A DNA stretch of 20,000 nt. Source: an uncultured virus (IMG/VR IMGVR_UViG_3300031525_000002). Lineage: Duplodnaviria > Heunggongvirae > Uroviricota > Caudoviricetes. The notes beneath the pieces were generated by a model that was given only the letters and a program-made list of their open reading frames with translations, had not been told where the DNA came from and made no database searches. The stretch lies in IMG/VR virus record IMGVR_UViG_3300031525_000002. One strand, given 5' to 3'. How positions within the stretch are numbered: the stretch's first letter is position 1; each line of letters begins with the position of its first letter. This document shows, piece by piece, positions 2,581-20,000 of this stretch. The translations under genes and the position numbers were made by a program.

Positions 2581-2583
2581 TTG

Positions 2584-5448: not shown

Positions 5449-5588
5449 TGCCCGAAGGGCCGTACCGAACGTCACCACGAGGCCCCGTACGCGTCATGTC
5501 GTGCGATCCTCCGTGCGACTGGTCGCCGAAAGATTGGACTGCGGCGGGACGCGCATGCTTCGCATCAGGCCCACGGACGACACGCTCG

Positions 5589-5786: not shown

Positions 5787-6073
5787 GACGCCCACTCCGA
5801 GCCGACGAGGCGGCCGTCGCGAATCGCGCAGGCTTCCTCGTGGCGGTGGATGAACTCGCGTCCTTCAGGCGTGACTACGTACGCGAGCACGGGGCGACGC
5901 CCGAAGACGTTCTCGGTGTCGCCGAAGCGCGAGGGGCGAAGGTAGCCCAGCCGGAGCAGCTTGCTGATGGCGGCCCGGTCGAGCCGGTCGTGGTCATGCG
6001 GGTTGGGCATGTCATCGAAGTCGGCGAGGATGTCGTACAGGACGGAGGCGGAGAGGCGGTGCGGCTTGCTCAT
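5783..6073 (-). CDS. hypothetical protein, possible winged helix (96 aa)
   Basis: MSKPHRL start at 6073; AAISKLLRLGYLR...YVVTPEGREF resembles the wHTH recognition helix/wing and TxxG pattern. Confidence 0.6.
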   Translation of the reverse strand: MSKPHRLSASVLYDILADFDDMPNPHDHDRLDRAAISKLLRLGYLRPSRFGDTENVFGRRPVLAYVVTPEGREFIHRHEEACAIRDGRLVGSEWAS

Positions 6074-6114
6074 ATGAGAAAGACGCGGGGGGAGGCGGGT
6101 TCTGACAGAGACGA

Positions 6115-6990
6115 TCAGAATGCCCGATGCCGCTCCCAGAACGCCCTGTCGAGCATCGCCCCCCGCGTCCCGCTGAAGCTGGTGGCGCCCACGTGCTCGA
6201 GCGGCGCCCCTTCGCCAAGGTAGAGGTGCAGGCGGCCGCCCATCGCGCGCCACCGGTCACAGAAGGCCACGTCCTCCATGGTGAACACGCGTCGCTCGAG
6301 GCCCGTGTGAAAGAGGCCGACGTGCTCTTCATGTACCGGCTTGCCGTCGTCGTCGAGCCAGTCCTTGTCGTACCGGAGCGAATCCTTGTAGTGGGCCGTC
6401 ATCTTCTCGAAGACCTCGCGCTTGATGAGCGCGAACCCGAAGGGGACGTGACGCGGCATCTCCGCGATTCCGTCGGCGCCGACCTCCCCGAGGACCTCGC
6501 AGCGGAAGTCGGGCACGTACCGAACGGTGTAGCCGCGTAGGATCTCACCGAGTTCCTCGGCGGTGACCTCGGGGTGCTCGCGCAGGTGCTCGATGGCCTT
6601 CTGCGCCCCTTGGACCCAGTGTCGTGACTTCTGGATGTACGGGACGGCGATGATCGGCTTATCGGCCTTGAGGAGGCGCGTGAGCAGAGGCGCGATCTGG
6701 CCGGAGGTCGTCGGCTTCACGTCCGAATCCCATAGGAGCGCGTGCGTGTACTGCCGCGGGTGCGCCAAGAAGAGGCGAACCAGGTTGTTGCGCGCGTGCT
6801 CGATGCAGTTGGGGTACGGCTGCGGGTCGAGCTCGACCGAGCCCCCGTCCCACGACTTGTCGTCGCAGATCACGTCGAGTTGCTTGCCGAGTTGGTAGAG
6901 GGTACCGGCGATGGCGCGGCTGAGGCCGGCGGCTTCGCTGTCACCGTATAACGGCAGAAGCGCGCAAATTCGGAAGTTGGCCATCGTCAC
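6115..6990 (-). CDS. GT-A fold glycosyltransferase-like protein (phage-type)
   Basis: ARNNLVRLFL, ALLWDSDV (DxD), FGFALIKREVFEKM, EDVAFCDRWRAMGG, LEHVG. Confidence 0.8.
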   Translation of the reverse strand: MTMANFRICALLPLYGDSEAAGLSRAIAGTLYQLGKQLDVICDDKSWDGGSVELDPQPYPNCIEHARNNLVRLFLAHPRQYTHALLWDSDVKPTTSGQIAPLLTRLLKADKPIIAVPYIQKSRHWVQGAQKAIEHLREHPEVTAEELGEILRGYTVRYVPDFRCEVLGEVGADGIAEMPRHVPFGFALIKREVFEKMTAHYKDSLRYDKDWLDDDGKPVHEEHVGLFHTGLERRVFTMEDVAFCDRWRAMGGRLHLYLGEGAPLEHVGATSFSGTRGAMLDRAFWERHRAF

Positions 6991-7602
6991 TCACCCCGAC
7001 CTCGCCTTGAACGCCTCCCGAGCGGCCGTATGCCCCCCGAGCGACTGGATGCGGGTGAAGTCGTCAGATCCCGCTCCGTACTTCCGAATGAACGCGAACC
7101 ATGGCGCGTCCGCTACGCGGCGCTCCTCGTCACGCGCGCGACGCTCGGCCGCCTCACGATCCCGAGTCGCCTCGCGCTTCTCTGCGCTCGCCTTACGCTT
7201 CGCCTCGAGCCCGGAGACCGCCTCCGACGAGAAGCTCGCCTCGCCCGGATCGAACATGCGCCCGTGGTTCTTCCCCGAGCACTGGCACTCGCAGGTAAAG
7301 CCGGTCGATGACGTGCACTTCGCGGAGCACACCTCCTTCGCGCTGTACCGCCCACGGATCTCGGTGGCCCGGCGTGGCTTGTGGCACTGGCGGCAGTCGA
7401 TGACGAAGGCCCCCTCGACGTTGAGGTGCGGCGCGCCCTTCGGCTGCGCGTAGACGTAGACGTTGCTGCCCTGAGGCGCACGGCGCGCCTCGTCGGCGCT
7501 CGAGGTGCGGCTCGTGGCGATGCCACACGCCTTGCACTTGGCGATCCAGCGGCAGCGCTTGAGGAGGACCGGGCCGGGTAAGGTGGTACCGATGAGGCTC
7601 AT
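6991..7602 (-). CDS. MSLIG-tagged Cys-rich Zn-binding protein (array gene 17)
   Basis: Starts MSLIG; CKAC, CRQC, CSAKC..G..CECQCSGKNHG; charged helical C-terminal part. Confidence 0.8.
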   Translation of the reverse strand: MSLIGTTLPGPVLLKRCRWIAKCKACGIATSRTSSADEARRAPQGSNVYVYAQPKGAPHLNVEGAFVIDCRQCHKPRRATEIRGRYSAKEVCSAKCTSSTGFTCECQCSGKNHGRMFDPGEASFSSEAVSGLEAKRKASAEKREATRDREAAERRARDEERRVADAPWFAFIRKYGAGSDDFTRIQSLGGHTAAREAFKARSG

Positions 7603-7832
7603 CGCTGCACCGGTGCGGCCTTGATGACCTTGCCTCCTCGCCGGTACGTCTCCTGCTGAATCGCAACGATGGCACTGCGAGGTGCGAAGACGCGGACGTA
7701 GAGGAACGGGCGCTTCGGTTCACCCGTCTGGTACCCTTGACGCTCACACCACTCGCGGAACGCCTCCGCTTCGTACGTGGCGCCGAATTCGCTCAGGCAG
7801 TGCCACGGGCGGTCCATGAGGCCACCGTTCAT
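7599..7832 (-). CDS. hypothetical protein (array gene 16), starts MNGGLMD
   Basis: ATGA overlaps at both ends. Confidence 0.7.
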   Translation of the reverse strand: MNGGLMDRPWHCLSEFGATYEAEAFREWCERQGYQTGEPKRPFLYVRVFAPRSAIVAIQQETYRRGGKVIKAAPVQR

Positions 7833-8467
7833 CGGGACACCACGTCGCGCTTCGCGCGCCCCAGAGGGTCCCGCTCGGACGTGGGGTACGTGAACACGCG
7901 GTGGGGTCGGTCGGAACTCTGCTCGGCCGCATAGGCGCGCGCCTTGGCGAGGTCCTTCGCGTCACCCCGGTTCTTCCACATCGCCGCCCGTGGCACGCGG
8001 ACCGTCTTGAAGGTCGGCAGGCGCCACGTGGACCCCTCGCGCTCGACCTGCTGCTCCTCGGTCGTCCACGCGAGGACGATCTTCATCTTCGCTGGCTCTA
8101 GCGGCTCGCGCGCCTCACGCTTCTCCTCGGCCTCGATGAACGCCTCGCGCGCCATCTGCTCGCGGTGCTCGCTGGCGTCAGGCGTCCGCACGCGTGGAGC
8201 CCGAGGCGCCGTCGGCGCCGCCTCGCGCTCGTTGAGTACCCGGACCGCCCACGCGCACGCCGACGCTGCTGTGGAGCCGTACGGACCCGCTGCGTGCTCA
8301 ATCCACCTGCGCTTGCCGGTCCGCTCGACCGAGCCCATGAAGACGCCCGACTGCTCGACGCGCCATGACCGCTTGCAGACCGGAGACGCGCCTCGGTCGG
8401 GGATGAGCGTCAGGATGCCGTGCGTGATCGTCTCACGCGGGTCGGGCTTGCGTCCGATGAGGCTCAT
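7829..8467 (-). CDS. MSLIG-tagged hypothetical protein (array gene 15)
   Basis: Starts MSLIGRKP; ATGA overlaps; shares SWxVExxGxFMGSV module with 9449..10267. Confidence 0.8.
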   Translation of the reverse strand: MSLIGRKPDPRETITHGILTLIPDRGASPVCKRSWRVEQSGVFMGSVERTGKRRWIEHAAGPYGSTAASACAWAVRVLNEREAAPTAPRAPRVRTPDASEHREQMAREAFIEAEEKREAREPLEPAKMKIVLAWTTEEQQVEREGSTWRLPTFKTVRVPRAAMWKNRGDAKDLAKARAYAAEQSSDRPHRVFTYPTSERDPLGRAKRDVVSR

Positions 8468-8829
8468 CGCACGCGCTCCTCATCCTCGGCCTTCCGGTAC
8501 TCCTCCATCTCCTTGGCGTACTCGCGCATACGACCGGCGGCGTACTCCGACCACCCATCGGCCCAAGCGTCGTGGAGGCGTCGCTTCTGCGCAGGTGTGG
8601 CCGTCACACCGGTCGGCATGTAGTCGTCGACGTCGGGCGGCGACCCCTGGTCAAGGAGCCACCGCTTGATCGCAGCAGCGGAAGGCGTCTTGCCGACCTC
8701 CTCCGCGATCTCGGCTGGACCCATGGTGTTGCCTGCGTCCTGGCGCCCGGTCGTCCGCCAGAACGGAAGCTCCTTCACGAGCTCGGTCTCCGTGAGCGTG
8801 CGCGAGGGGGGCTTGCCGATAAGGCTCAT
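8464..8829 (-). CDS. MSLIG-tagged hypothetical protein (array gene 14, 121 aa)
   Basis: Start re-set to ATG 8829 (MSLIGKPP), overlapping the upstream TGA as ATGA. Confidence 0.8.
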   Translation of the reverse strand: MSLIGKPPSRTLTETELVKELPFWRTTGRQDAGNTMGPAEIAEEVGKTPSAAAIKRWLLDQGSPPDVDDYMPTGVTATPAQKRRLHDAWADGWSEYAAGRMREYAKEMEEYRKAEDEERVR

Positions 8830-9452
8830 CGCAGCGCCTCCACGGGCAGGAAACGAACCCGAGCGCCGCCACCCATGACGGTGACGGTGTCGCCCCGGTC
8901 GGCGCGCCTGAGGGCGGCCAGGTCGGTTGCCGACAGGCTCTCGCGGTTGTCGCGGATGAAGGTGACGAGGCCGCATTCCCCCTCGTCACCCCGGTCGGAC
9001 CGCCAGTGCACCGGGAGGTCCTGGGCGCCTTTGGCAAACGCCTTGACGGCGGGGGCGAGGGTTCGGTGGCCTTCCGAGGTGATGCGCCCGTCCTCAACGA
9101 CGTAGAAGCCACCGCTTGAGGCGATCCCGATCTGACCCCGGCGAGAAAAGCCGAGCGTCACATTGTAGCGCAGGCCCGTACCATTTGTTCCTGGGATGGC
9201 CGTCACCGTTGGCTTGGCCGAAGGAGCCTTGTAGAGCCCGTGCGTCTTGAGTGCGCGCTCCTCGGTCTGGCGACGCTCGCGGCCCTCGCGACGGGCCTCG
9301 GCGCGCTTGCTCCTGGCCACCCACGCCGGCACGGCCCCCATCTTCGCGAGGTTCTCGTGTGCGCGCGCGACCTCGAGAGCCTGCGCTTCCACGCGCCGAC
9401 GGTAGGCGATGTTCGACTGCTCGGCTTCGGGCAATTTGCCGATGAGGCTCAT
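8826..9452 (-). CDS. MSLIG-tagged hypothetical protein (array gene 13)
   Basis: Starts MSLIGKLP; basic helical N-half, beta-rich C-half. Confidence 0.8.
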   Translation of the reverse strand: MSLIGKLPEAEQSNIAYRRRVEAQALEVARAHENLAKMGAVPAWVARSKRAEARREGRERRQTEERALKTHGLYKAPSAKPTVTAIPGTNGTGLRYNVTLGFSRRGQIGIASSGGFYVVEDGRITSEGHRTLAPAVKAFAKGAQDLPVHWRSDRGDEGECGLVTFIRDNRESLSATDLAALRRADRGDTVTVMGGGARVRFLPVEALR

Positions 9453-10267
9453 GCGCCACCCAGCCGGTACATCTCGTCGCTCGAGCCGCGAATCTCCTTC
9501 GCGCCCGACCCAGGACGGTCCCAGACGCGGCCGTTGTAGCTTACGTGTCCGATGACCTTGCCGGAGGCGTCACGGATGTCCCCGCCCGTCCAGTTACCAC
9601 CCCCGAGCTCGTTCTTGGTGATGAACTGCTGCACGACGCTGGACGCCTCCAGGTAGCTGGTGACGGGAACCCGGTGCGAGCGAATCGAGACGGAACCACG
9701 ATGGTCGCTCGAGTAACTGGAGTGGGTGAAGTCGGGGTTCGGCTCGGCAGCGAGCTCCACGGACCAGTTGCCCGACTCCGCCCCGCGCGACTCCTTCGCC
9801 TTGAGGTGCGCCTCGAGCAGTTCCGCAGCTCGGCGGCACACGAGGACTCGCCAGGTCGGAAAGGCTTGCCCAGACCGCCCCCCTTCGCCCCCGTTCGGGT
9901 CGAGGGACCATCCGTTGTACGGGATCGCGTTCACGTGACGCCGGGGGGGCGCGCCCCGCTTGACGCTGCCCATGAATTCGCCGTTCAGTTCGACGAGCCA
10001 CGACCCCTTGTTGGGCTGAAGCATCATGAAGTTGCCGTCCGTCAGCACCTTCGTCGAGTAGGGGGCGATGTGCAGGGGCGAGCCGGGGACGTTCGCGGGG
10101 ATCGACGCCTTCGCGCGCCGTGGGCGCTTCGGAGGCGTGGCGTAGGGGTCGGCCATGTGCGCTCGGAGGTCGGCCCGGCGCTCCGCGTCCGTCCGCTGGG
10201 TCCGCTGGGGCTTCGGCGCGGGCCGGTCGAAGAGCGATAGCGATGTCGGCTTGCCGATGAGGCTCAT
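9449..10267 (-). CDS. MSLIG-tagged two-domain hypothetical protein (array gene 12)
   Basis: Starts MSLIGKPTSLSLFDRPAP; C-terminal GNWTGG...HVSYNGRVW domain. Confidence 0.82.
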   Translation of the reverse strand: MSLIGKPTSLSLFDRPAPKPQRTQRTDAERRADLRAHMADPYATPPKRPRRAKASIPANVPGSPLHIAPYSTKVLTDGNFMMLQPNKGSWLVELNGEFMGSVKRGAPPRRHVNAIPYNGWSLDPNGGEGGRSGQAFPTWRVLVCRRAAELLEAHLKAKESRGAESGNWSVELAAEPNPDFTHSSYSSDHRGSVSIRSHRVPVTSYLEASSVVQQFITKNELGGGNWTGGDIRDASGKVIGHVSYNGRVWDRPGSGAKEIRGSSDEMYRLGGA

Positions 10268-10761
10268 GGCGACCTCGGCATCACATAGGCCACCCCATCA
10301 ACGACGTAGCCACCCTTGACCACGCCACCGATGCGCTTGGCAGCGCGGGCCATGGTGTCCTTGGAAATGCACGCCTCGACAACACGAGCATCGTCGCGAC
10401 GAGATGTCATCGCGAAGAAGATGAACTGAGCCCGGTTGAACCCGCGAACGCTCGCGGCAGCATCGGGAAACATCTGATGCGCGCGAGCGCCTGCTGGCAC
10501 ATTGGCGGGGACGTTCGCGGCGGGCGCGGGAGCCTGGCGAGCCGGGCTCGGGTGCTTGTCTCTGGTGAGACCGCACTGGAAGCACTTGTCTGAGCCGCCC
10601 GGCATGCGGTCGAACCGATGTGTGACGGGTTCGGCATCCATGGTGGCCATGAGCGCCCGGTACGCGGCTCGACTCCCAGGCTTCGGCGCGGTCGGCGCGG
10701 GCGCGGGCCTGTCGAAGAGCGACAGCGATGCCGTATCCTTGGGCTTGCCGATGAGCGCCAT
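10264..10761 (-). CDS. MALIG-tagged hypothetical protein with small HxF...CxxCG...H Zn finger (array gene 11)
   Basis: Starts MALIGKPKDTASLSLFDRPAP; HRF...CFQCGLTRDKH. Confidence 0.8.
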   Translation of the reverse strand: MALIGKPKDTASLSLFDRPAPAPTAPKPGSRAAYRALMATMDAEPVTHRFDRMPGGSDKCFQCGLTRDKHPSPARQAPAPAANVPANVPAGARAHQMFPDAAASVRGFNRAQFIFFAMTSRRDDARVVEACISKDTMARAAKRIGGVVKGGYVVDGVAYVMPRSP

Positions 10762-11096
10762 CAGTACCCCTTCATACCGCGAAAATGCGCTGCCTGCTCG
10801 CGAAGTCCCTTCGCCCGCAGTTCGGACGGTTCGAGGCGCGCAGCTTCGTCGAGCAGGTCAGCAGCACGGTTGTTCTTGGCCGCGCTCAAGCCCATGTCGT
10901 CGGCTGCTGCGTTCGCTGCGACCATGGCCACGCTTGTCGCGTGGTCGGCCTTGCTGCGCCGCTCGTCCGCCGCCCGCCCCTCGGAACTGCGCGACCACGC
11001 CTCGGAGGCCCGGTCCTCGGCGGCGAGCCCCGCACGGAGCTTGCGCCCCATGTCGCGCTCCTCGGCGGTGGGACCCTTGCGTCCGATGAGGCTCAC
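10761..11096 (-). CDS. MSLIG-tagged Ala/Arg-rich helical protein (array gene 10)
   Basis: GTG start GTGAGCCTCATCGGA; TGATG overlap downstream. Confidence 0.78.
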   Translation of the reverse strand: MSLIGRKGPTAEERDMGRKLRAGLAAEDRASEAWSRSSEGRAADERRSKADHATSVAMVAANAAADDMGLSAAKNNRAADLLDEAARLEPSELRAKGLREQAAHFRGMKGY

Positions 11097-11647
11097 GTCC
11101 GCCTCCCCGCCGCAGCCTTGCGCTCGCGCGCGCGTCGCTTCGCGTCACGGTACTCCCGCGCCTCGAAGCCGGTCCTCGGTCGGTAGTCGCGATCGCGAAC
11201 CGGTTCGCCGAGTTCGGAGTAGAGCGGGATCGACGCGCGGCTTGTGAATGAGCGACCGCCTTGGTAATTCGAGGAACGCTCGTACTCGACGCCGCCCCAC
11301 CGTCCCACCGCTTCGCCCATCCGGATATTGCTGTACTGCGTGCCCATGCGCCGGGTGGTGATCGTCCCGTGCGTGAGCAGCATGCGCGCCTCGATGGCAG
11401 CGGGGTCCAACTTGTCCTCGAGAAGCCCGATGGCGATGCGGTCGAGCGGCCCGCCCGATGGGCGCGCGTAACCCAACCACGTCTCGATGCCGTCGCTGCC
11501 GGCGGCGCGATAGAGTTCCACGCGGCCGCCTCGGAACCGGATGGCGACGTACTTCCGTCCCCGGTAGGTGAATTCCTTGCGCGCGAGCTTGGGGGCGTCG
11601 TGGAGAGGGTCGTGGGGAGCGCGAGGGAAGCGACCGATGAGGCTCAT
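11093..11647 (-). CDS. MSLIG-tagged Arg-rich hypothetical protein (array gene 9, 184 aa)
   Basis: Start re-set to ATG 11647 (MSLIGRFP), ATGA overlap. Confidence 0.8.
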   Translation of the reverse strand: MSLIGRFPRAPHDPLHDAPKLARKEFTYRGRKYVAIRFRGGRVELYRAAGSDGIETWLGYARPSGGPLDRIAIGLLEDKLDPAAIEARMLLTHGTITTRRMGTQYSNIRMGEAVGRWGGVEYERSSNYQGGRSFTSRASIPLYSELGEPVRDRDYRPRTGFEAREYRDAKRRARERKAAAGRRT

Positions 11648-12012
11648 GGCGTCCTCCGAAGATGCGTGAGGCCGGGATTGTACTTCGTGTCCCAGTCGCC
11701 GTGCTCGATGCGGAAGCTCGGCGAACCGCGCAACTCGTAGGCTTCGCCACCGTAACCGCGACTCCCCACCTTCCACGGGAACAGGTCGTTCTGTCCGTCG
11801 GACACCTTGAACATGCCGGTGACATGGCGGCCGCTCAAGCGACGAACGATGGCGACAGCGCCCGACTTGCTCTTGGAGAACCCGACCCGGTTGTACGCCG
11901 CGAGGTCCTCGGGATCGCTGTGCGTGGCCCAGACGCCCCACCCGCGCTGGATAGACGTGGGAGCGAACGTGAAGGCGACCTTGGAGTAGCCGCTACCGCC
12001 GATGAGACCCAT
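11644..12012 (-). CDS. MGLIG-tagged hypothetical protein (array gene 8)
   Basis: Starts MGLIGGSG; TAATG overlap with upstream gene. Confidence 0.78.
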   Translation of the reverse strand: MGLIGGSGYSKVAFTFAPTSIQRGWGVWATHSDPEDLAAYNRVGFSKSKSGAVAIVRRLSGRHVTGMFKVSDGQNDLFPWKVGSRGYGGEAYELRGSPSFRIEHGDWDTKYNPGLTHLRRTP

Positions 12013-12395
12013 TACCCGCGCCTCGCTTTCGCCGCCCCAGCGTCCACGTACTCGTGAAACCGACGGATCGCACGCGTGACCTCTGCGTCGGCGGCGGGCA
12101 GTTCGTCGCGATGGTACGCCTCAGCGTAGTGCTTCGCCTTGAACGCCCTATCCTTCTCCTGCTCGAGCCGCTGGAGCTCGGGGTCGTTCCACATCGAGGC
12201 GTAGTACGCCTTCTCGCGCACAGCGCTCTGAATCTCACCGGGCGAGCGACCGAGAATCGCGCCCGTGCGGATGCGGTAGTCGAGGTCAGTCTCCCCGTGA
12301 CGATGCTCGATCGCCTTCCGGCATTTCACGCAGTAATTCTTCGACCCGCGGATCTTGTTGCCGCAGTAGCAGGTGCCGGAGATGAGCGTCGTCAT
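12012..12395 (-). CDS. Zn-ribbon protein with degenerate tag MTTLISG (array gene 7, 127 aa)
   Basis: ATG 12395 in ATGA overlap; CYCG..x..YCVKC. Confidence 0.75.
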   Translation of the reverse strand: MTTLISGTCYCGNKIRGSKNYCVKCRKAIEHRHGETDLDYRIRTGAILGRSPGEIQSAVREKAYYASMWNDPELQRLEQEKDRAFKAKHYAEAYHRDELPAADAEVTRAIRRFHEYVDAGAAKARRG

Positions 12396-12598
12396 TTTCG
12401 CCCGAACTTCCCCTGGTCGAGCAGCCCGTACTGCTGATTGAACAGCGAAAACTGCTCGGCGGGTGGCGGTGGCGGCTTGGGACGCGTCTCCATGCCGGCG
12501 AAGAGTGCGGGCGTGCGCGCGCATGCCGAGCAAAGCTTACGGTTCTTCTGCGGGCGGTGGCACCCGGGGCACTTGTTCTTCACGCCGATGAGACTCAT
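12392..12598 (-). CDS. MSLIG-tagged small Zn-finger protein with QFSLF motif (array gene 6, 68 aa)
   Basis: ATG 12598; CPGC...CSAC; poly-Pro then EQFSLF. Confidence 0.75.
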   Translation of the reverse strand: MSLIGVKNKCPGCHRPQKNRKLCSACARTPALFAGMETRPKPPPPPAEQFSLFNQQYGLLDQGKFGRK

Positions 12599-12807
12599 CC
12601 GAGCAACCTTCCTTGTCTGCCGCCATCGTCCGTGACGAGCGCCTCGCGGTACGCCCACCCACGCTCACCGTTGTCCCAGTGAATGAGCGCGCGGCCAGGT
12701 CCAGCGACCTGGTCGACGGTGCCCTTGGCGTCGGCCGACACCGCTACGCCCGTCACCCGGAGCGAGTACGCAGCGCAGACGCGGTCACCGCGACGCAGGC
12801 GTCTCAT
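12595..12807 (-). CDS. small SH3/KOW-like beta-barrel protein ending GRLLG (array gene 5)
   Basis: LRRGDRV...GTV...ALIHWDNG pattern; ATGA overlaps both sides. Confidence 0.7.
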   Translation of the reverse strand: MRRLRRGDRVCAAYSLRVTGVAVSADAKGTVDQVAGPGRALIHWDNGERGWAYREALVTDDGGRQGRLLG

Positions 12808-13220
12808 CCGAGCAATCCTCTCCGGGGCTTCCCGATCTCAGAGTCTCGCACGTTGATGACCGCGTCGAGCGATGCCTTCGGATAGTCGACGAGCGCATCG
12901 TAGACCATATCGCTCCACGTCAGATACGTCGTGTGCCCCTCCGGCCCCTTGTGCGACACGCGCGTTACACGCCACTTCCGCGAGGTCGGGTCGATGGAGA
13001 ACCAGAGCTTGCGCGCGACGTATGGGCCTTTGGAGGCGTCGCCCGTCAGTATCTCGAAGGTCGCCTCGCCGTGGAGCCTGCGGAAGCGCCCCACAGCTCG
13101 CTTGCGGTTCGTCGCGTTGACGTGCACCGCCTTGAAGATGAGCTTGCCGTCTGCGCCGCGAACGGGCGTGTGACCGCGCTCGTCCAGCGGGTACGCCTGC
13201 CGCCACGCGCCGAGGCTCAT
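12804..13220 (-). CDS. hypothetical protein, starts MSLGA, ends RGLLG (array gene 4, 138 aa)
   Basis: ATG 13220 in ATGA overlap. Confidence 0.75.
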   Translation of the reverse strand: MSLGAWRQAYPLDERGHTPVRGADGKLIFKAVHVNATNRKRAVGRFRRLHGEATFEILTGDASKGPYVARKLWFSIDPTSRKWRVTRVSHKGPEGHTTYLTWSDMVYDALVDYPKASLDAVINVRDSEIGKPRRGLLG

Positions 13221-13477
13221 CCGATGAGCCCCTTCTTCGCGGGCGGCTTCCACCCCTTCTCCCACGTCACAGCAGGGAGGCCCGCGACTCGCCCGACGCG
13301 GTAGGTCCACATGAGACCGGCCGAGGCAAGACGAATGCGGCAGCCCGACGGTAGGTAGGCGGCGGTCCGCAGTGCGAGCTCGGCCGCGCCTTCGCCACGC
13401 GAAGTGACCGTGTAAGTGTCTCCACGCGTCCCGTCCGCGAGGTAGACCTGAACCTTCACGCGCTGTCCGTCGTACAT
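13217..13477 (-). CDS. hypothetical protein ending KGLIG (array gene 3, 86 aa)
   Basis: ATG 13477 (MYDGQRV) in TGATG overlap. Confidence 0.7.
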   Translation of the reverse strand: MYDGQRVKVQVYLADGTRGDTYTVTSRGEGAAELALRTAAYLPSGCRIRLASAGLMWTYRVGRVAGLPAVTWEKGWKPPAKKGLIG

Positions 13478-14052
13478 CAGATGAGCCCTTCGAACGCGTG
13501 AGGTTCCTCGTAGACCGGCGTAGTGACGGTGCGCCACTTCGCGTGGGGGTCGCAAAGCTCCTTGACCCGGTACCGGTTCGGCTCGGCACATGGCACTTCG
13601 ACCGAGCGGCCCGAGCGAAGGAGTGACGACCCCATCCACTTCGGGCGCCTCTTGCGGGGCGTCTCAGGGTTGCAGGCGGCCTTGGTGCGGAACCGCCACG
13701 GGTCGCGGCAGGGGACGGCCACGGCGGCGGCGTTCAGCTTGGTGCGGACCAATTCCGTAGCCTTCGCCTCCGCCGCCTTCGAGCGCTGGTGCGTCGCTTC
13801 GCGGGCGTTCGCCTCGAGCCACTCACGAAAGAGCTCGGCCTTATGGTCGGGGGTGCCCGTGAAGCGCATCCGCCCGTGCTCATCCTTGGCGTAGCGGTTC
13901 TTCCGCCAGAGAGCGACCTCCCACGGGTCCAGGTTCGCCTCCACGCGCTCCTGGGCCTCGGCGCGGTGTTCGGCACCACGAAGGTAGCCGGTGCGACGAC
14001 GCTCCTCGGCGGCAAAGTCGGTGGGCTTGGACTTGGGGCCGATGAGGCTCAT
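13477..14052 (-). CDS. MSLIG-tagged hypothetical protein, also ends EGLI (array gene 2)
   Basis: Starts MSLIGPKS; two VPCxxPxR[FY]R segments. Confidence 0.8.
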   Translation of the reverse strand: MSLIGPKSKPTDFAAEERRRTGYLRGAEHRAEAQERVEANLDPWEVALWRKNRYAKDEHGRMRFTGTPDHKAELFREWLEANAREATHQRSKAAEAKATELVRTKLNAAAVAVPCRDPWRFRTKAACNPETPRKRRPKWMGSSLLRSGRSVEVPCAEPNRYRVKELCDPHAKWRTVTTPVYEEPHAFEGLI

Positions 14053-14405
14053 GAGCGCTTCAGGTCCTTGTAGCCGCCGCTGGCCGTCCAGTAGCCGATG
14101 TTCGTGTCGCGCCTTCGGGCGCGCATGGTGAGTTCCTCCGGCCCCATCCCGTCACGCTGGAGCCCGGCTACGTCGGCCTCGCTGTGCTCGTAACCGTTCC
14201 GGATGAGGATCTCGCGCATCTCGTCGCGCTCGCGCTGCTCTGCGGACCGGACGGCGGTTGACGACCGCTCTCCACGTCTCCAACGCCGACCTCTCTGACC
14301 GCTTTCGGTAGCGTCTCGCGCGCGCGCATCCTGCAGGCGACGGAACTCGCCTAGCTTGCGGACGGCCTCCTCATTGGACAGGGGCTTGCCACCGATGAGC
14401 GCCAT
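14049..14405 (-). CDS. MALIG-tagged Arg-rich protein (array gene 1)
   Basis: Starts MALIGGKP; first gene of the coupled array. Confidence 0.78.
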   Translation of the reverse strand: MALIGGKPLSNEEAVRKLGEFRRLQDARARDATESGQRGRRWRRGERSSTAVRSAEQRERDEMREILIRNGYEHSEADVAGLQRDGMGPEELTMRARRRDTNIGYWTASGGYKDLKRS

Positions 14406-14423: not shown

Positions 14424-14651
14424 ATGAACCCACACACCGTCACCTTTCTCGCGCGCGCCGCTGCCTTCGAACTGTCCACCCGCCTGGGTGGACTGGCCCC
14501 ACCGGACCAGCAAAGCCGAGAGGCGGAACTGGAACGCTTGTGGGAACTCGTGCCGGAAGACGAGGAAGTGTTCTGCTACTGCGCGCGACGCGCCCCGGTC
14601 ACTGGAGCGTCGGCGGCTCTGCCGGGTCTTCCGGCGTGCTTCCGTCAGTAG
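14424..14651 (+). CDS. small hypothetical protein divergent from the array
   Basis: Fills the gap between minus-strand genes; protein-like composition; 3' end overlaps 14599 gene. Confidence 0.4.
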   Translation: MNPHTVTFLARAAAFELSTRLGGLAPPDQQSREAELERLWELVPEDEEVFCYCARRAPVTGASAALPGLPACFRQ

Positions 14652-15318
14652 GCGCGGGCGGCAGGGCGGGAGGCGGAGCAGGGGGAAGCGCCGGGGTCGC
14701 CTTCGTCCCAAAGAACAGGTACCCGAGGAGCGCGCCGATGGCGACGCCGGGAAGGCCCCCGATGGCACCGCCAATCGCTGCGCCGAGGGCAGCCATGGCG
14801 ATGGAGTTGTCTTGCTCTGGGGGTGCAGCGGGCGCGGGGAGCGCCAGATGAGCCGACGCCGCTTGGACAGCGGGGGCCGCCACTGGACCGGCGGCCGCGT
14901 AGTGGTGATGGTGGACGTGGACCTCGCCGATGTTGATCTGGACACCCGGCTTGGTGTCCGCCGGAGGCGGGATGAACTCGGCGTGCCACTCTTCCTGCGC
15001 GGGCTCGGGAGGTCGTAGCGACACCAACGACTCTGCCTGGGCCGCCTCGTAGTCGGCCAAGAGCTTGTCGATGACCTTGCGGACCTCGCGCTCCTTGAGG
15101 CGGGCGACGGTCTCGTCGAGGAAGATCTGCGCCCGAACCTCCGGGGGGACGGGGTCCTCCCAACCGCCCGTAGGCGGCGCTCCTGGTCCAGATGGGCCTG
15201 GGGGTGGCGTGACGGGAAACGGGATGAAGTCGCGGTCGATCCACCCGGACACGTCGGCGGACACGTCCATCCACGTCGCGTGGTAGCCATCGACATCCCA
15301 AGACCCGAGGCGCGCCAT
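14599..15318 (-). CDS. Pro-rich membrane protein with glycine-zipper TM segment
   Basis: ALGAAIGGAIGGLPGVAIGALLGYLFF; Pro-rich linkers. Confidence 0.72.
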   Translation of the reverse strand: MARLGSWDVDGYHATWMDVSADVSGWIDRDFIPFPVTPPPGPSGPGAPPTGGWEDPVPPEVRAQIFLDETVARLKEREVRKVIDKLLADYEAAQAESLVSLRPPEPAQEEWHAEFIPPPADTKPGVQINIGEVHVHHHHYAAAGPVAAPAVQAASAHLALPAPAAPPEQDNSIAMAALGAAIGGAIGGLPGVAIGALLGYLFFGTKATPALPPAPPPALPPAPTDGSTPEDPAEPPTLQ

Positions 15319-15330: not shown

Positions 15331-16323
15331 TTACTCCAGCCAGCGGCGATTCGCGGGGTCGGCGATCCAGCGGACCGTCTGCTGGAGGCTTTCTTCGAAC
15401 GGCTTCGGGATGTGCCACCCCATCGAGGCGAGCTTCTCGCCCGAGAGCGCATACCGGAGATCGTGCCCAGGTCGGCTCTGATGAAAATTCACCAGATCGT
15501 AGTCGGGACGACGCCCGAGGATCTCGCCGATGAGCTTCACCATGTCCTCGTTAGTGATCTCGCGCTCACCCACGATGTTGTAGCGCTCGCCCGCCTCGCC
15601 GCGCTCGAGGAGGAACGTCACCGCCGAGGCGACGTTGCGCGCGTGGATGTAGAAGCGCGAGCCGGACCGCGTGAGGTCGGGGTTCGCGTGGACGAGGATC
15701 TTCTCACCCGCAAGCGTGCGCTTGACGATGAGCGGCACCCATTTCTCTCTGTGCTGTCGCTCGCCGATCACGTTCATCGTCGAGCTCACGAAGACCGGCA
15801 GCTTGTACGTGTTCGCCCACGCCGCGCAGAGTTGGTCACCGGCGCTCTTCGTTGCCGCGTATGGGTTGTTCGGCTTGTGACGATCCCACTCCTTGTACCG
15901 GACCCCGTCCGGCGCCGGCCCGAACACCTCATCCGTCGAAAAGTAGAGCATCTTCTGGAGGCGCGTGAGCCCGCGCGCCCACTGGAGCATCCGGTACGTC
16001 CCCACGACGTTGCTCTGGATGAAGGGCCACGGATCCTCGATGGAGTTGTCCACGTGGGTTTCGGCGGCCATGTGCACCACGTAGTCGGGCTCCCCGAGCT
16101 CGTGACGGAGCCCCGACCCGAACTCGTGCGTCATGTCGGCGGTGAAGATGTGGACGCGCCGGTCATCGAACGCCTGAATGTCGCGGAGGCGGTCGAAGCC
16201 GCTCGAGGCATACGTGAGGCGGTCGAGGACCGCGATGTCCCAGTCGGTCGTCTTGAGGATGTGCTCGACGAGGTGCGCACCGATAAAGCCGGCACCGCCG
16301 GAGATGAGGATTCGCGTGGTCAT
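15331..16323 (-). CDS. rmlB: dTDP-glucose 4,6-dehydratase (NAD-dependent epimerase/dehydratase)
   Basis: MTTRILISGGAGFIG, HMAAETHVDNSI, STDEVFG, YAATK, RPGHDLRYAL; start at 16323 in TAATG overlap. Confidence 0.92.
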   Translation of the reverse strand: MTTRILISGGAGFIGAHLVEHILKTTDWDIAVLDRLTYASSGFDRLRDIQAFDDRRVHIFTADMTHEFGSGLRHELGEPDYVVHMAAETHVDNSIEDPWPFIQSNVVGTYRMLQWARGLTRLQKMLYFSTDEVFGPAPDGVRYKEWDRHKPNNPYAATKSAGDQLCAAWANTYKLPVFVSSTMNVIGERQHREKWVPLIVKRTLAGEKILVHANPDLTRSGSRFYIHARNVASAVTFLLERGEAGERYNIVGEREITNEDMVKLIGEILGRRPDYDLVNFHQSRPGHDLRYALSGEKLASMGWHIPKPFEESLQQTVRWIADPANRRWLE

Positions 16324-16682
16324 TACATGCCCCGTTCGCCACCGGCTAGCAGGGATGCCTCGTCTTCGTCGCCGCCAGTTCCTGCAGCGTGCACATCGAT
16401 CAGTGGAGCGTCCAAGACGCGCGCGAAGACACGGTACTCCTCCGTGTCCAGACGCTCGGCCCACAGCTTGGTCAGCGCCTCAAACGAGAGAGCGCCGGTC
16501 GAATCACGGTCGACCGGCTCGTCGCCCGTGTCCGAAACCTCCAATTCGTCCTGCATCATCAGCCGCAGCGCGGCAATGGCAAGTGCGCGTGACGAATAGA
16601 CGCCAGCCGGACCAGGAGCAGCCTCATCGTCATTGCTCCAAACGCCTCCGGGAGACTCGACGATGTAAAGCGTCATCGTCAT
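16323..16682 (-). CDS. acidic hypothetical protein
   Basis: Overlapping start/stop both sides; LYIV...GVYSSRALA pattern. Confidence 0.7.
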   Translation of the reverse strand: MTMTLYIVESPGGVWSNDDEAAPGPAGVYSSRALAIAALRLMMQDELEVSDTGDEPVDRDSTGALSFEALTKLWAERLDTEEYRVFARVLDAPLIDVHAAGTGGDEDEASLLAGGERGM

Positions 16683-17056
16683 CGGGCACCCTCGTAGTTG
16701 AACGCATGCGCGATCCCCTTCGCGAGCTTGTCGAGGAGCCCGTCACGACCCCCTTCGTACGACTCCGCGTTCAGCGCCTTGTCGAGTGCGGCCTTGACGA
16801 TGGCATCGAGCTTCGCCCGAGCCTCCGGTTGCGCGAGCTGCTCCGTGACGACCTTGCGAGCGGCCTGCTCCATCGCGTCCGCGAAGAGCTTGCCCAGCGG
16901 ACTCTCAGTCCGACCCGAGTAACTGCTGTAACGCGTCGCCAGCAGGCTTGAGATCGCCGTCGCGAAGAGTTCGTCGCGCTTCTCCGGCGTGAGGCTGTCG
17001 AGGATCGTTTTGGCGACGAGAGTTTGCAGATGGTCTGCGGACAACTGCATCGTCAT
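16679..17056 (-). CDS. helical hypothetical protein (125 aa)
   Basis: ATG 17056 (MTMQLSAD) in ATGA overlap. Confidence 0.72.
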   Translation of the reverse strand: MTMQLSADHLQTLVAKTILDSLTPEKRDELFATAISSLLATRYSSYSGRTESPLGKLFADAMEQAARKVVTEQLAQPEARAKLDAIVKAALDKALNAESYEGGRDGLLDKLAKGIAHAFNYEGAR

Positions 17057-17283
17057 GGCGTCACCGGCTTCTCTTCTTTCCGAACGGTGATAGCGAGGTC
17101 CGCGTGCGCGTTGCAGCGGCTGCAGATGATGAGGCACCCAAGCATGTCGTGGTTGAAGGGACTCACCGATGGTAGGTCCCAACGGTGACCCTCCAGCGCG
17201 CACCACTCCTTCTTGATCGCCTCTTCCTTGGCGAGGAGTGCCGCCTTGCCCGCCGCGAGCTCGTCCTTACTTCGCGCTACCAT
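17053..17283 (-). CDS. small Zn-binding protein (C-x4-H-x-W...CxxC)
   Basis: MVARSKDE...WCALEGHRWD...CSRC. Confidence 0.65.
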   Translation of the reverse strand: MVARSKDELAAGKAALLAKEEAIKKEWCALEGHRWDLPSVSPFNHDMLGCLIICSRCNAHADLAITVRKEEKPVTP

Positions 17284-18079
17284 TCGGAGCCTCCGAACGA
17301 CCCAGATCAACGGCAGGCGGTGGAACCATCGGTTCCTTCGGCGTTGTCGAGTCAGGCTGCGGCAGCCTCTTGAGCTTGGCGACCCAGTCCGCCGTGACGT
17401 TCCAGAGGTGGATGTAGCGGTACTGGAGCGCCTCTGGGCTCTTCGTGCCCTCCTCCGCCATGAACGTCGGATTGACGTCGAAGTTGAAGTTGGCCGTCAC
17501 GCGGTAGTGAGCGAGCCCGTTCATCTTCCGCCAGTCGTGGTTGAAGTAGAGGAACGTCTGCTGCATGAAGAACCGGCGGTGCGTCGGGTCCCAGAACGCG
17601 CGGTCCGACCGGCCCGATGGAACGACGATGTTGATGAACGCGTCGACCTTGAGGATCCGGTAGACCTCGTCCATGAAGGCGAAGAGCATGTCGGCGCCGA
17701 GGTACTTCGCTCCTCCAAGGTCCACGTCGCCAATGCCCTTGAGGATGTCGCTCTCCACGACCTCGCGCGCCGGCACGTGCTCGAGGAAGTGAGAGCAGTT
17801 CATCTCGTCGACCGAGTTGTCCGCCCACGGCCACGGGAACTTGAAGAGGTCGACCTTGTGCTTCGCCTTCTCCCCGTAGAGGTCGACACCCTCGTGTCCC
17901 TCCTTCGGGTTCTGCCCACATCCGAGGTCGAGCTTGAGCATGCTGCGCGAGGCAGCCTCTACGAGAGTAGGCGCGACGAGCCCCAGCGCCGTCTTGGGAG
18001 ACAGATCCTTGTCGACCTGAGCGGACAGCGCCTTGAGCCGGTCGTACTCCTCTTTCGAGATGGAAACGTGTTCGCTCAC
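17267..18079 (-). CDS. class I SAM-dependent methyltransferase (Methyltransf_11-like)
   Basis: KLDLGCG, DNSVDE, HFLEHV, EVYRILK, WDPTH; GGAGG SD before GTG. Confidence 0.85.
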   Translation of the reverse strand: MSEHVSISKEEYDRLKALSAQVDKDLSPKTALGLVAPTLVEAASRSMLKLDLGCGQNPKEGHEGVDLYGEKAKHKVDLFKFPWPWADNSVDEMNCSHFLEHVPAREVVESDILKGIGDVDLGGAKYLGADMLFAFMDEVYRILKVDAFINIVVPSGRSDRAFWDPTHRRFFMQQTFLYFNHDWRKMNGLAHYRVTANFNFDVNPTFMAEEGTKSPEALQYRYIHLWNVTADWVAKLKRLPQPDSTTPKEPMVPPPAVDLGRSEAPNGSAK

Positions 18080-18089
18080 GAGAACCTCC

Positions 18090-18833
18090 CTAAAAAACGA
18101 TGCCGCTGTTGACGTCGAGATGTCCCACTTTGACGCGACAGTCCGTCGCGAATCGTTTGCCGGCCTTCACCGCAGCCTGGCAGAAGTTGAGGTCCTGGGT
18201 GTAGCCGACGATCCCCTTGCCCGGTATGAGGTCGTTGACGGTGACGTACCAAGGGGCCGGGATGTCGCGGAACAGACTCATCCTCCAGAGCGCACAGCCC
18301 ATGGCGATCCCGTTCACGGGCATGACCTGACCCGCAGAGACCGCCTCGGTGACGTTCCGAGGGCGGAAGTCGAGCACGCCCGTTCTCGCGTACTCCGCAG
18401 GGTCGCCGTAGGCCATGGGCATGTTGACCTCGCCCTTAGTGAAGTAGAGAGCGCTCACCGCATCGTAGTTGCCCCACTCGATGCTCTCGAGGAGACGAAT
18501 GTGCGCGTCCGGTGGCGGCAGGTTGTCGTCCTCCAGAGTGAGGATGTACTTCCACGTCGAGAGTTCGGGGTGCTTGATGATCATGTCGATCATGGCGTTG
18601 TACGCCTTGCCAACCTCGTGACCGCTCGCGAACATCCAAGCCCGCTTCTGGTTCATCGGACCGATGAGACCCAGCCACTTCTGCACTACGGTGTCGGGGA
18701 TGTTTCCCCTCGAAGGGACGATGATGACCGTCGAGGAGTCGTTGTAGGTTGTACCGACGATGTGCTCTACGCGCTCGAAGCCGAGCCCGGCGCTTTTCAT
18801 CTTTTCGACCACGTCGGCGACAGGCTGGGTCAT
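18090..18833 (-). CDS. GT-A fold glycosyltransferase-like protein
   Basis: YILTLEDDN, MGCALWRMSLF, APWY, TQDLNFC, VKVGHLD; GGAG SD, ATGA overlap. Confidence 0.78.
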   Translation of the reverse strand: MTQPVADVVEKMKSAGLGFERVEHIVGTTYNDSSTVIIVPSRGNIPDTVVQKWLGLIGPMNQKRAWMFASGHEVGKAYNAMIDMIIKHPELSTWKYILTLEDDNLPPPDAHIRLLESIEWGNYDAVSALYFTKGEVNMPMAYGDPAEYARTGVLDFRPRNVTEAVSAGQVMPVNGIAMGCALWRMSLFRDIPAPWYVTVNDLIPGKGIVGYTQDLNFCQAAVKAGKRFATDCRVKVGHLDVNSGIVF

Positions 18834-18991
18834 AACTTCTTCTTCTCCAGGGCAACGGGTGCACCGGCGCGAATCCAAAGACGCACGATGTCGGCCACGG
18901 TAAGACCGTACTTGTCGGCCCTACACTTGATCGTGGCAAGTTCTTCGGGCGACAGACGCAGGTTGAGCTGCTTGGATCGCGCCTGCACCAT
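18830..18991 (-). CDS. ribbon-helix-helix DNA-binding protein (53 aa)
   Basis: MVQARSKQLNLRLSPEELATIKCRADKYGLTVADIVR: alternating beta strand plus two helices (Arc/CopG/MobC-like). Confidence 0.8.
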   Translation of the reverse strand: MVQARSKQLNLRLSPEELATIKCRADKYGLTVADIVRLWIRAGAPVALEKKKL

Positions 18992-19035: not shown

Positions 19036-20000
19036 TTAGGTGCCCTGCAAAGCGATCCAAGGCATCTGGGCCGCAGTCGCTCCTGTACGGATGTAGCTGG
19101 CGGTGTTGCTCATCCCGAAGCTCGTCGGCAGGGCGTTTGTCGTCGCCTGCGAGTAACCGGGAAGCATGAGTGTGCTCATCGCCGCGATCTGACCGCTTCC
19201 GATCAAAGGCTGCTGCGGCGGACCGTAGTACGAGACCGTCGCCGAGTTCTGTGTCGAGATCCACCACGCGAGGAGATACGGGCCTGGAGTGATCGACCAT
19301 GAGTTGAGCGACATCTGCTGGTAATTGATTCCGCTATTGCTCGAATAGGCCGCACCGCTCGTCCACGTGATGTTGCTAGAAGCCGAGCTCGCGAGACTGA
19401 GCGTGGACACGTTGAGCGTGTAAAGCGCCGCACTGATCGAGAACCCGCCCGAGGAGTTGGTAGCGTGGTTCGTGACCGAGGCGAGGAAGAGCAAGTTCGA
19501 CGCAGTGATGCAGTCTGGAACGATGATCGGTAGGAAGTAGAGCGTGTTCTGCCCGCCGGAGATGGCCGTCGCAGCATGCCCGTTGCTCCAAGATGACAGG
19601 CCACCGTTCTGCGCGGTCACGACGGACCCGTTTAGGCCGAACGAGATGCCGTTGCTGTTGGCGAACGTGACGGCGGTGAGGTTGTTGCTCGTCGTTCCTG
19701 CCGAAATGTTGATGGCCGTCAACGCCGACGCAACAGACGCCGTGAGGGTCGCTACGCCAGCGCCCGTGCTGAGACCGAAGGTCACGCCTTGGGAGTTGGC
19801 GAAGGTGAGACCGCTGATGGCGTTGCTGGTTCCGCCGTTGGCACTGACGTTGAGCGCGTAAGACCCGGTGACGGTCGACGCATTCAGGCCGAAGCTAACG
19901 TTGTTGGAGTTGGAGAACGTGAACGCGCTGGCGAGGTTCGAGGTCGTACCTGCGGAGATGTTGATGCTTGCTTGGGTGGAGGCGACAGTGGCCGACGCCG
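19036..20000 (-). CDS. Ser/Thr/Asn/Gly-rich repeat protein, fibre/adhesin-like (5' end outside window)
   Basis: Frame open to window edge; three ~35-45 aa repeats [IL]N[IV]SA..TSN....TF[AS]NS..[VI][ST]FGL, then a non-repetitive C-terminal domain. Confidence 0.8.
   Translation of the reverse strand, partial: ASATVASTQASINISAGTTSNLASAFTFSNSNNVSFGLNASTVTGSYALNVSANGGTSNAISGLTFANSQGVTFGLSTGAGVATLTASVASALTAINISAGTTSNNLTAVTFANSNGISFGLNGSVVTAQNGGLSSWSNGHAATAISGGQNTLYFLPIIVPDCITASNLLFLASVTNHATNSSGGFSISAALYTLNVSTLSLASSASSNITWTSGAAYSSNSGINYQQMSLNSWSITPGPYLLAWWISTQNSATVSYYGPPQQPLIGSGQIAAMSTLMLPGYSQATTNALPTSFGMSNTASYIRTGATAAQMPWIALQGT

Follow-up and report, generated by a model that had tools for sequence, protein, structure and literature searches.

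The array of 17 co-oriented small ORFan genes that we delimited by reading open reading frames at 6991..14405 (minus strand) of the window, i.e., the whole 20,000-nt stretch of viral DNA analysed here, encodes a short hydrophobic motif, L[IL]G, that is restricted to the ends of the proteins. Among its 15 occurrences in the array proteins, 12 are found at residue 3, three at the extreme C-terminus and none internally, against 1.27 internal occurrences expected from composition. Homologues keep the C-terminal endings and alter the N-terminal tags only conservatively, which points to selection on the terminal peptide. The explanation that we prefer, and to which we give roughly even credence, is that these small-Leu-[Ile/Leu]-small peptides are docking motifs acting at the protein level, the C-terminal tails having been propagated by junction duplication.

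All 16 junctions of the array are overlaps, 12 of them ATGA, one GTGA and three of a single base (TGATG twice, TAATG once). No Pfam or NCBIfam family scored above cut-off in any of the 17 genes, and gene 7602 is the only one with a PHROG match (phrog_6842). Paralogy as the origin of the common tag was rejected, as an all-vs-all BLASTP of the 17 tag-stripped proteins returned just two weak pairs at E ≤ 0.001, namely 10761 with 10267 (12 residues) and 10267 with 8467 (43 residues, 40% identity). The N-terminal tag M[SAG]LIG opens 12 of the 17 genes, in one case with a GTG start.

The genes that carry C-terminal copies are neighbours on the minus strand. The 191-aa gene (13477..14052) combines an MSLIG tag with the tail ...EEPHAFEGLI*, its E-G-L-I codons (13480..13491) standing directly before a stop that overlaps the next start by one base (TGATG). 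This is followed by an 86-aa gene (13217..13477) that starts MYDGQ, lacks the N-terminal tag and ends ...PPAKKGLIG*, with the G-L-I-G codons GGG CTC ATC GGA at 13220..13231, the last A of which opens the ATG of the next gene. The 138-aa gene (12804..13220) starts MSLGAW, that is, with the tag minus its Ile, and ends ...GKPRRGLLG* (G-L-L-G codons GGA TTG CTC GGA, 12807..12818, before an ATGA overlap), while the 70-aa gene (12595..12807) starts MRRLRR, has no N-terminal tag and ends ...GGRQGRLLG* (R-L-L-G codons AGG TTG CTC GGA, 12598..12609). The latter overlaps by ATGA with a tagged 68-aa gene, MSLIGVK (12392..12598), whose start reads MSLIGVKNKCPGC. The junction letters are CTCATCGGATGA at 13217 and CTCGGATGA at both 12804 and 12595. 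The first-pass annotation had read three consecutive genes without MSLIG as ending KKGLIG* (13217), RRGLLG* (12804) and QGRLLG* (12595), the gene above them (13477) as ending EGLI* and the two other untagged genes as starting MTTLISG (12395) and MNGGLMD (7832); the letters agree in every case, the sequence of gene 13477 reading ...HAFEGLI*.

Chance is excluded as the origin of the three C-terminal L[IL]G copies, the probability that at least three of 17 proteins end in this way being ~9e−8, and the endings L[IL]G and GL[IL] are both absent from the 18 further ORFs that we read in the window and L027. At the nucleotide level, CTCATCGG occurs 14 times, always on the minus strand (1.2 expected), and 12 of these occurrences lie within the array, where the copy at 13220..13231 is the only one that is not an N-terminal tag. 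It had also been proposed that genes lacking the N-terminal tag carry it at the C-terminus instead. A C-terminal L[IL]G was found in three of the five genes without the canonical tag and in none of the 12 with it (Fisher exact P = 10/680 = 0.015), so this part of the claim stands as a tendency; it is no rule, since the 138-aa protein retains a partial N-terminal tag (MSLG), the 70-aa gene with its RLLG* directly precedes a fully tagged gene (MSLIGVK, 12598) and the 191-aa protein is labelled at both ends.

Loss of the C-terminal L[IL]G among homologues, the outcome that would have counted against the first-pass reading, was not seen in the 86-, 138- and 70-aa families, apart from one distant relative of the last. 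The sole homologue of the 86-aa protein (P0007, 80% identity) ends PRKGLIG, and among the three homologues of the 138-aa protein (70–86% identity) two end RRGLLG (P0002, P0004) and one RSGGLIG (P0003). In the 70-aa family the ending is present in all six tailed homologues, which span 46–86% identity, and the linker of 8–12 residues before it differs in both sequence and length; the residues immediately preceding the tail read RQGR, EQRS, EQVR, RARG or RQGT. A distant relative of this family (P0044, E = 6e−4) has no tail, carries an N-terminal extension of 19–22 residues and starts MPVFPKKP; on thin evidence, this may be a case of a switch between the N- and the C-terminal end. The 191-aa family comprises 16 homologues at 41–77% identity, 14 of which end HAF[EA]GL[IL]; all 16, including one that ends HAFEGLIG and two that end GGFFDDLL[RY]G*, possess a hydrophobic C-terminal end behind a linker of variable length. 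The distance from the hydrophobic pair to the C-terminal end is thus 0, 1 or 2 residues (GLI*, LIG*, LLRG*). N-terminal tags of homologues read MSLIG, MALIG, MGLLARK, MALLARK, MGLIARK and VSLLGG, so that only S/A/G, I/L and G/A replace one another, as LLG and LIG do in the tails; in P0024 a tag-like SLLG lies at residues 7–10, provided that the gene call is right. Two explanations had been offered at first reading, a position-independent motif needing a free terminus or a property of the gene junction that marks inserted genes, and it is the former that gains from the conserved C-terminal endings.

In the mechanism that we consider, the N-terminal form would be [S/A/G]-L-[I/L]-[G/A] right after the start Met and the C-terminal form (G)-L-[I/L]-(G) at the very end, both being carried at the free ends of small proteins that are not otherwise related, on linkers that are flexible and little conserved. 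Through these peptides, the array proteins of this phage-like element from peat soil would all attach to one partner that offers a hydrophobic pocket. The junction segment, composed of ribosome-binding site, tail codons and stop/start overlap, would be duplicated upon gene insertion, which would propagate the C-terminal copies, and selection for the peptide would maintain the tails afterwards. An AF2 model of the 191-aa protein (pLDDT 70) shows residues 1–12 and 161–191 with low confidence and devoid of secondary structure, and Foldseek retrieved no PDB structure for this model at E ≤ 0.001. The model of the 138-aa family was unusable (pLDDT 47), and the ESM Atlas held no usable match to the 138-aa protein. 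The sequence around the tail of the 191-aa protein is acidic and that around the other three basic, so that more than one motif may be involved. If the docking labels are real, they would represent a portable address peptide of 4–6 residues, usable at either protein end and inherited via the gene junction, and would offer both a handle on the function of small ORFan phage protein sets and a minimal cargo-directing tag.

No reader of the tags was found within the readable 23 kb of the 132.8-kb contig. The leading, if tentative, candidate for the reader of the C-terminal tails is the sliding clamp, either the DnaN of the host or a phage clamp; docking to a partner, a single reader common to N-terminal tags and C-terminal tails and the clamp in this role are all steps that we infer. 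We know of no precedent for 15 clamp binders in a row, and 15 of 17 neighbouring ORFan genes with the tag or a variant of it are far above any known phage clamp interactome. The clamp motif of mycobacterial ImuB is given as QLPLWG (PMC10421592), the bacterial clamp-binding consensus as QL(S/D)LF (PMC9690074), and T4 gp43, gp55 and gp33 are described as sharing short C-terminal clamp epitopes, hydrophobic and acidic in character, that follow a linker divergent in sequence and variable in length (PMC2988020). The C-terminal ends of the 191-aa family are built like those of the T4 proteins, and clamp epitopes resemble the array tags in being short hydrophobic terminal peptides behind divergent, variable-length linkers. 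Known clamp epitopes are also common to functionally different proteins and interchangeable between them (PMC2988020, PMC9690074, PMC10421592). Likeness to the motifs themselves is seen in the 70-aa family, where five of the six tails read Q-x-x-L-[IL]-G, and in SLSLF, which is present just behind the tag in two array proteins (genes 10267 and 10761). In contrast to clamp motifs, most tags contain no Gln and the N-terminal tag sits strictly at residues 2–5; without Gln, the tails of the 86-aa (KKGLIG) and 138-aa (RRGLLG) proteins and all N-terminal tags misfit the motif.

Complex prediction with E. coli DnaN as a stand-in clamp and the 70-aa family gave weak support, scoring 0.49 versus 0.00 for the best of three controls, with no interface reported, a value to be read against the fact that scores ≤ 0.60 comprise only 18 of 157 solved complexes and both of the mismatched pairs that passed. 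Of the 157 solved complexes, 116 reach the mark used for such predictions, as do 2 of 215 mismatched pairs. At least 71% of contacts recur between the prediction runs, with a partner pLDDT of at least 71, and the score may stem from resemblance to clamp-peptide complexes already solved. With the clamp as reader, it would serve the phage as a general landing platform, in a role far wider than that for the few replication and late-transcription proteins known from T4. The full picture of an actinophage-like element in which at least 15 unrelated small proteins are labelled by a four-residue hydrophobic, either-end tag for one hub, in its boldest form the sliding clamp serving as a DNA-bound toolbelt for phage effectors, and in which new genes gain the label through a duplicated junction, is in our view improbable as a whole.

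The strongest rival, which we consider rather unlikely, regards the tails as a by-product of the junction, in which the L[IL]G codons ride in a duplicated cassette (Shine-Dalgarno run, 8-nt spacer, ATGA) and persist through their overlap with the translation start region of the next gene, the peptide itself being inert. The four tailed junctions, including that of EGLI, are indeed alike, as each tail coincides with the 8 nt that separate a strong Shine-Dalgarno purine run from the ATG, and this location means that the overlap alone would slow tail divergence in close relatives. Direct repeats of the junction bracket exactly the 86-aa gene (13218..13246 and 13475..13503, 29 nt, 72% identity) and the 70-aa gene (12594..12611 and 12803..12820, 18 nt, 89% identity). 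In the window the tail codons are either TTG CTC or CTC ATC, and the presence in both LLG tails of TTG, a codon used for only 6% of Leu residues, argues for common descent of these two junctions. The genes present between the homologues of the 191-aa and 127-aa proteins also seem to vary among relatives: with matches grouped by equal contig size, a contig of 23,636 nt matched the 191-, 138-, 70- and 127-aa families and not the 86-aa one, and another of 2,311 nt matched the 191- and 127-aa families only. Based on the bracketing repeats, the tails probably spread by junction duplication, and it is this history that remains of the earlier suggestion of a junction-borne motif signalling gene insertion.

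What such a by-product leaves unexplained is the deep conservation at the amino-acid level. Six sequences of the 70-aa family, the most divergent at 46% identity, all retain L-[IL]-G while the preceding residues, which supposedly encode the Shine-Dalgarno run, are replaced throughout, and what is conserved is an amino-acid class, which at the base level implies only Y-T-N M-T-N G-G-N. Likewise, 14 of the 16 homologues in the 191-aa family, which come from many different contigs, share the GL[IL] end. No particular spacer sequence is required either, since the other 12 array junctions function with unrelated spacers of 3–16 nt. Nor does the array resemble an integron-like cassette array: its boundaries are coding overlaps of 1–4 bases without an intergenic site, no integrase family was detected in the window (Pfam, NCBIfam, PHROG), and junction repeats flank no more than two of the array genes.

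The basic residues before the C-terminal tails, which the first-pass annotation took to mirror those following the N-terminal tags, proved to be unspecific, as the last eight residues contain on average 2.06 K+R over all 17 array genes (1.37 expected) and 2, 3 and 2 in the three tailed ones. Ends rich in K/R are found throughout the array because the ribosome-binding site of the next gene lies there, and the apparent mirror is largely the Shine-Dalgarno run of that gene read in frame, in addition to a K/R-rich composition.

According to a further explanation, the tags are address labels that send diverse small cargo into the capsid, or into a compartment built by the phage, for co-delivery, which we regard as quite unlikely. 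It would suit a row of unrelated, fast-evolving small proteins with only a short terminal leader in common, located downstream of fibre-like genes and in the same orientation. Against it, no capsid, scaffold, portal or protease gene was found within the readable 23 kb, and the tag has only 4–6 residues, with no cleavage site recognised behind it. We know of the T4 internal-protein leader at the N-terminus only. The diverse small internal proteins of T4 have nothing but a conserved short leader in common (PMC3012670). An N-terminal leader on unrelated small proteins, as in T4-type capsid targeting, is what the array presents (M[SAG]LIG in 12 of 17), but the tag is shorter than the T4 leader, occurs C-terminally as well and has no sequence likeness to it. 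No PHROG or Pfam match indicated relatedness to T4 internal proteins in any array gene. Encapsulin cargo-loading and microcompartment encapsulation peptides are terminal, carried by flexible linkers and placed at the N- or C-terminus of unrelated cargo; they are longer than the array tags and their genes adjoin a shell gene, whereas the array has none in the 23 kb read. Finally, the terminal peptides could be degrons for a host AAA+ protease that render the proteins short-lived: they are short and non-polar, lie at unstructured free ends of either terminus and adjoin basic residues, and ClpX reads distinct N-terminal and C-terminal motif classes. We regard this as very improbable; a hydrophobic pair 0, 1 or 2 residues from the C-terminal end fits carboxylate-dependent recognition poorly.

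At the nucleotide level, codon bias and ATGA overlaps explain most of the invariance. CTC accounts for 59% of Leu codons and ATC for 83% of Ile codons, and AGC follows from the ATGA overlap, so the near-invariant ATGAGCCTCATCGG needs no reading as a nucleotide signal. The third base of the Gly codon varies (GGC 7, GGT 3, GGA 2), and relatives alter the tag peptide conservatively, which implies different codons. The core ATGAG-C-CTCAT is a palindrome, the same letters being predicted by codon bias plus the ATGA overlap, and a hairpin at ATGAGCCTCATCGG would need a loop of 1–3 bases holding the start codon. Hence, ATGAGCCTCATCGG as an operator, a hairpin promoter or a recombination site was rejected as the main explanation. 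Frameshifting or read-through across GGA-TGA was dropped on inspection of the letters, since read-through yields no meaningful frame.

Searches for related arrays included a 16-mer scan of IMG/VR, which found 26 loci with a single match each and no array, and a blastn search of the array against the phage collection, which gave no match. There was also no match for the 138-aa and 191-aa family profiles in IMG/VR or GTDB genomes, nor for the 191-aa protein by tblastn in the phage and plasmid collections, and a metagenome scan recovered only the contig of the window itself. A full-text literature search for MSLIG yielded nothing relevant by title or abstract among the matches listed. No informative variant was found at the junctions in the parts covered by contigs of four peat metagenome runs. 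These runs belong to 24 labelled peat metagenome that contain the stretch or part of it, and their contigs, taken at 80% likeness, consist of identical short pieces together with many poorly fitting ones.

The array comprises 17 small minus-strand genes of 68–272 codons, running from 14405 down to 6991 in the window, itself a section of a metagenome contig of 132,819 nt; 24 public runs, all labelled peat metagenome, contain the stretch in full or in part, and the record L027, the same DNA, continues 3.2 kb past the window end. The genes overlap at all 16 junctions (12 by ATGA, 1 by GTGA, and 3 by one base). No Pfam or NCBIfam family exceeded its cut-off for any of the 17 genes, and the only PHROG match was that of the last gene, 7602, to phrog_6842.

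An M[SAG]LIG start (N-tag) was found in 12 of the 17 genes, while the other five begin with MYDGQ (13477), MSLGAW (13220), MRRLRR (12807), MTTLISG (12395), and MNGGLMD (7832). Re-reading the array bore out the C-terminal tails reported in the first-pass annotation: the first three of these five genes are consecutive and end in KKGLIG* (86 aa, 13477–13217), RRGLLG* (138 aa, 13220–12804), and QGRLLG* (70 aa, 12807–12595), and the tagged gene above them (191 aa, 14052–13477) ends in EGLI*. The 17 proteins contain L[IL]G 15 times, 12 at residue 3, three at the very end and none internally; at least three such ends among 17 would be expected from composition with P = 9e-8, and not one of the 18 further ORFs that were read from the window and L027 has such an end. 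The claim that the C-terminal tag stands in place of the N-terminal one held as a tendency only (L[IL]G tail in 3/5 genes without a canonical N-tag vs. 0/12 with one, Fisher exact P = 0.015), since the 138-aa gene retains MSLG, the 191-aa gene bears both an N-tag and a tail, and the 70-aa tail precedes a fully tagged gene. With the variants MSLG, MTTLISG, and MNGGLMD included, the tag is present on 15/17 neighbouring ORFan genes.

Homologues were searched for all four tailed genes, and the endings are kept in them, as L[IL]G in the 138-, 86-, and tailed 70-aa families and as a hydrophobic end in the 191-aa family; the loss of the C-terminal motif in homologues, which the first-pass annotation named as refuting, was thus not observed. 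The three relatives of the 138-aa protein (70–86% identity) end in RRGLLG (two) or RSGGLIG (one), and the single relative of the 86-aa protein (80% identity) in PRKGLIG. Close relatives of the 70-aa protein end in QGRLLG or, on a 141-kb contig, in NPLYEQRSLIG, and searching 1.84 billion representatives with a profile added three clusters of ~70 aa ending in EQVRLIG, RARGLLG, and RQGTLLG; when aligned together, all six tailed sequences, down to 46% identity, keep L-[IL]-G, and the preceding 8–12 residues vary in sequence and length. The 191-aa family, the most widely conserved of the array, has 16 relatives on many contigs (41–77% identity), of which 14 end in HAF[EA]GL[IL], one in HAFEGLIG, and the two most distant in GGFFDDLL[RY]G*, each tail preceded by a Pro-rich linker of variable length. 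This protein has a long helical N-terminal half and carries the repeated pattern PC-x-P-x-R-x-R-x-K-x-x-C twice, and a Foldseek search of its model against the PDB returned no similar fold. No relative was found in IMG/VR, GTDB genomes, or the phage and plasmid collections, and contigs from four of the public runs, placed on the stretch, showed no informative variant at the junctions. Selection on the peptide was thus told apart from selection on the overlapping start region solely through the pattern of amino-acid changes. A weak relative of the 70-aa protein, P0044 (E = 6e-4), is without the tail and has a 19–22-residue N-terminal extension starting with MPVFPKKP, similar to the starts MPSTWLVP and MTSSWLVPEKK seen in the most distant 191-aa family members; this one sequence may represent a switch between N- and C-terminal tags.

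We read the N-tag as a peptide-level feature. The near-invariant ATGAGCCTCATCGG at the tags looks like a DNA element and holds a small palindrome. That candidate was set aside as the main explanation, since codon usage in the window (59% of Leu codons are CTC, 83% of Ile codons are ATC) predicts its letters together with the ATGA overlap, which requires a second codon beginning with A, hence AGC or AGT; the third base of the Gly codon is free (GGC 7, GGT 3, GGA 2). Relatives of the 191-aa protein start with MSLIG, MALIG, MGLLARK, MALLARK, MGLIARK, or VSLLGG, position 2 always being S, A, or G, so that residue class is conserved through changes that require different codons. In one of them, P0024, a tag-like SLLG lies at residues 7–10 behind MGRAAK; either the gene call begins too far upstream or the very end is not a required position for the tag.

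The suggestion that the motif belongs to the gene junction and marks insertion of new genes is supported as an account of history. Junction repeats bracket the 86-aa gene (29 nt, 72% identity) and the 70-aa gene (18 nt, 89% identity), both LLG tails use TTG, which accounts for 6% of Leu codons, and, judging from contigs of the same length among the protein hits, relatives appear to differ in which of these genes they carry. We take this pattern to reflect junction duplication upon gene insertion. As the tails of the 70- and 191-aa families are old, the junction copies would have been taken from already existing tails and retained since. The basic residues said to mirror each other at the two ends fared unequally: 7/12 tagged genes have K or R as their sixth residue, a real enrichment, but those before the C-tails are explained by composition and the ribosome-binding site of the next gene. 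All four tailed junctions have a strong purine run (GAAGGG, GAAGGGG, GGAGAGGA, AAGGAAGG) 8 nt before the next ATG, encoding K, R, G, and E in the upstream frame, and K+R in the last eight residues average 2.06 over the 17 genes vs. 1.37 expected (2, 3, and 2 in the three tailed genes).

The tags and tails have the build of a short linear docking motif: unrelated bodies (two weak paralogous pairs among the 17 proteins) bear at a free end a hydrophobic pair that is conserved, behind a linker that diverges in sequence and varies in length. Residues 1–12 and 161–191 of the 191-aa protein are unstructured in its AF2 model. The pair lies 0–2 residues from the C-terminus (GLI*, LIG*, LLRG*), which argues against a reader needing the carboxylate at a fixed distance. 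Among known paradigms, the sliding-clamp epitope fits best; for it, excerpts of the respective papers give the bacterial consensus QL(S/D)LF (PMC9690074), the mycobacterial ImuB motif QLPLWG (PMC10421592), and the interchangeable hydrophobic-acidic C-termini after a divergent linker in T4 gp43, gp55, and gp33 (PMC2988020). Q-x-x-L-[IL]-G is present in 5/6 tails of the 70-aa family, and SLSLF (10229–10243 and 10714–10728, minus strand, within SLSLFDRPAP) follows MSLIG or MALIG by a few residues in genes 10267 and 10761, whose N-termini are paralogous over 12 residues; SLSLF nearly matches the bacterial pentapeptide. Complex prediction of the 70-aa family with E. coli DnaN, a stand-in from another host, scored 0.49 vs. 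0.00 for the best of three controls, without giving an interface, on a mark that was met by 116/157 solved complexes and 2/215 mismatched pairs, and at ≤ 0.60 by only 18/157 solved complexes and both passing mismatched pairs. Contact agreement between runs was at least 71% and partner pLDDT at least 71; the score, which may be driven by solved clamp-peptide complexes, lends weak support to clamp reading. Because Gln is absent from the remaining tails and from every N-tag, we consider a clamp a rather doubtful reader of the C-tails, and a still less likely one of the whole tag set. The main alternative is a capsid-targeting label, as in the T4 internal proteins, diverse proteins whose targeting sequence is their sole common part (excerpt of PMC3012670); another candidate would be a protease degron. 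Terminal peptides that serve as addresses or docking sites are of a known kind; the literature searched contained no description of a four-residue label borne by proteins at either terminus, of its presence on 15/17 neighbouring ORFan genes, or of copies spreading with the gene junction.

Zinc-ribbon-like Cys pairs directly follow the tag in the 68-aa (MSLIGVKNKCPGCHRP...CSAC) and 127-aa (MTTLISGTCYCGNK...CVKCRK) genes (12012–12598, minus strand), and MTTLISGTC is invariant in 5/5 family members found. Directly upstream of the array, a 239-aa Pro-rich protein (14599–15318, minus strand) without family match has a hydrophobic, Gly-rich C-terminal segment, AIGGAIGGLPGVAIGALLGYLFFG, which probably anchors it in a membrane. 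A dense sugar/methyl-transfer cluster flanks the array (1746–6990 and 15331–18878), with three Methyltransf_24 paralogues, a GT2 and a DXD glycosyltransferase, two phrog_1574-like proteins, another methyltransferase, and a nucleotide-sugar epimerase/dehydratase, and may act in glycan modification of the virion or of DNA. The DNA further upstream encodes, in array orientation, three or more fibre-like paralogues (19036–20000 and L027 1–4185) with ~40-residue repeats (NISAGTTSN...FSNSNNVSFGLN) and a common C-terminal domain ending in ALQGT*. We interpret the element as large and phage-like; its host is probably an actinobacterium. Gene 7602 (6991–7602, minus strand) has ~27% identity to relatives in 21 Mycobacterium phage records, namely gp90 of phage Leston (L028, 2504–2833) and 20 others; the Leston gp90 start, MTLTISRP, bears a faint likeness to the tag variants.
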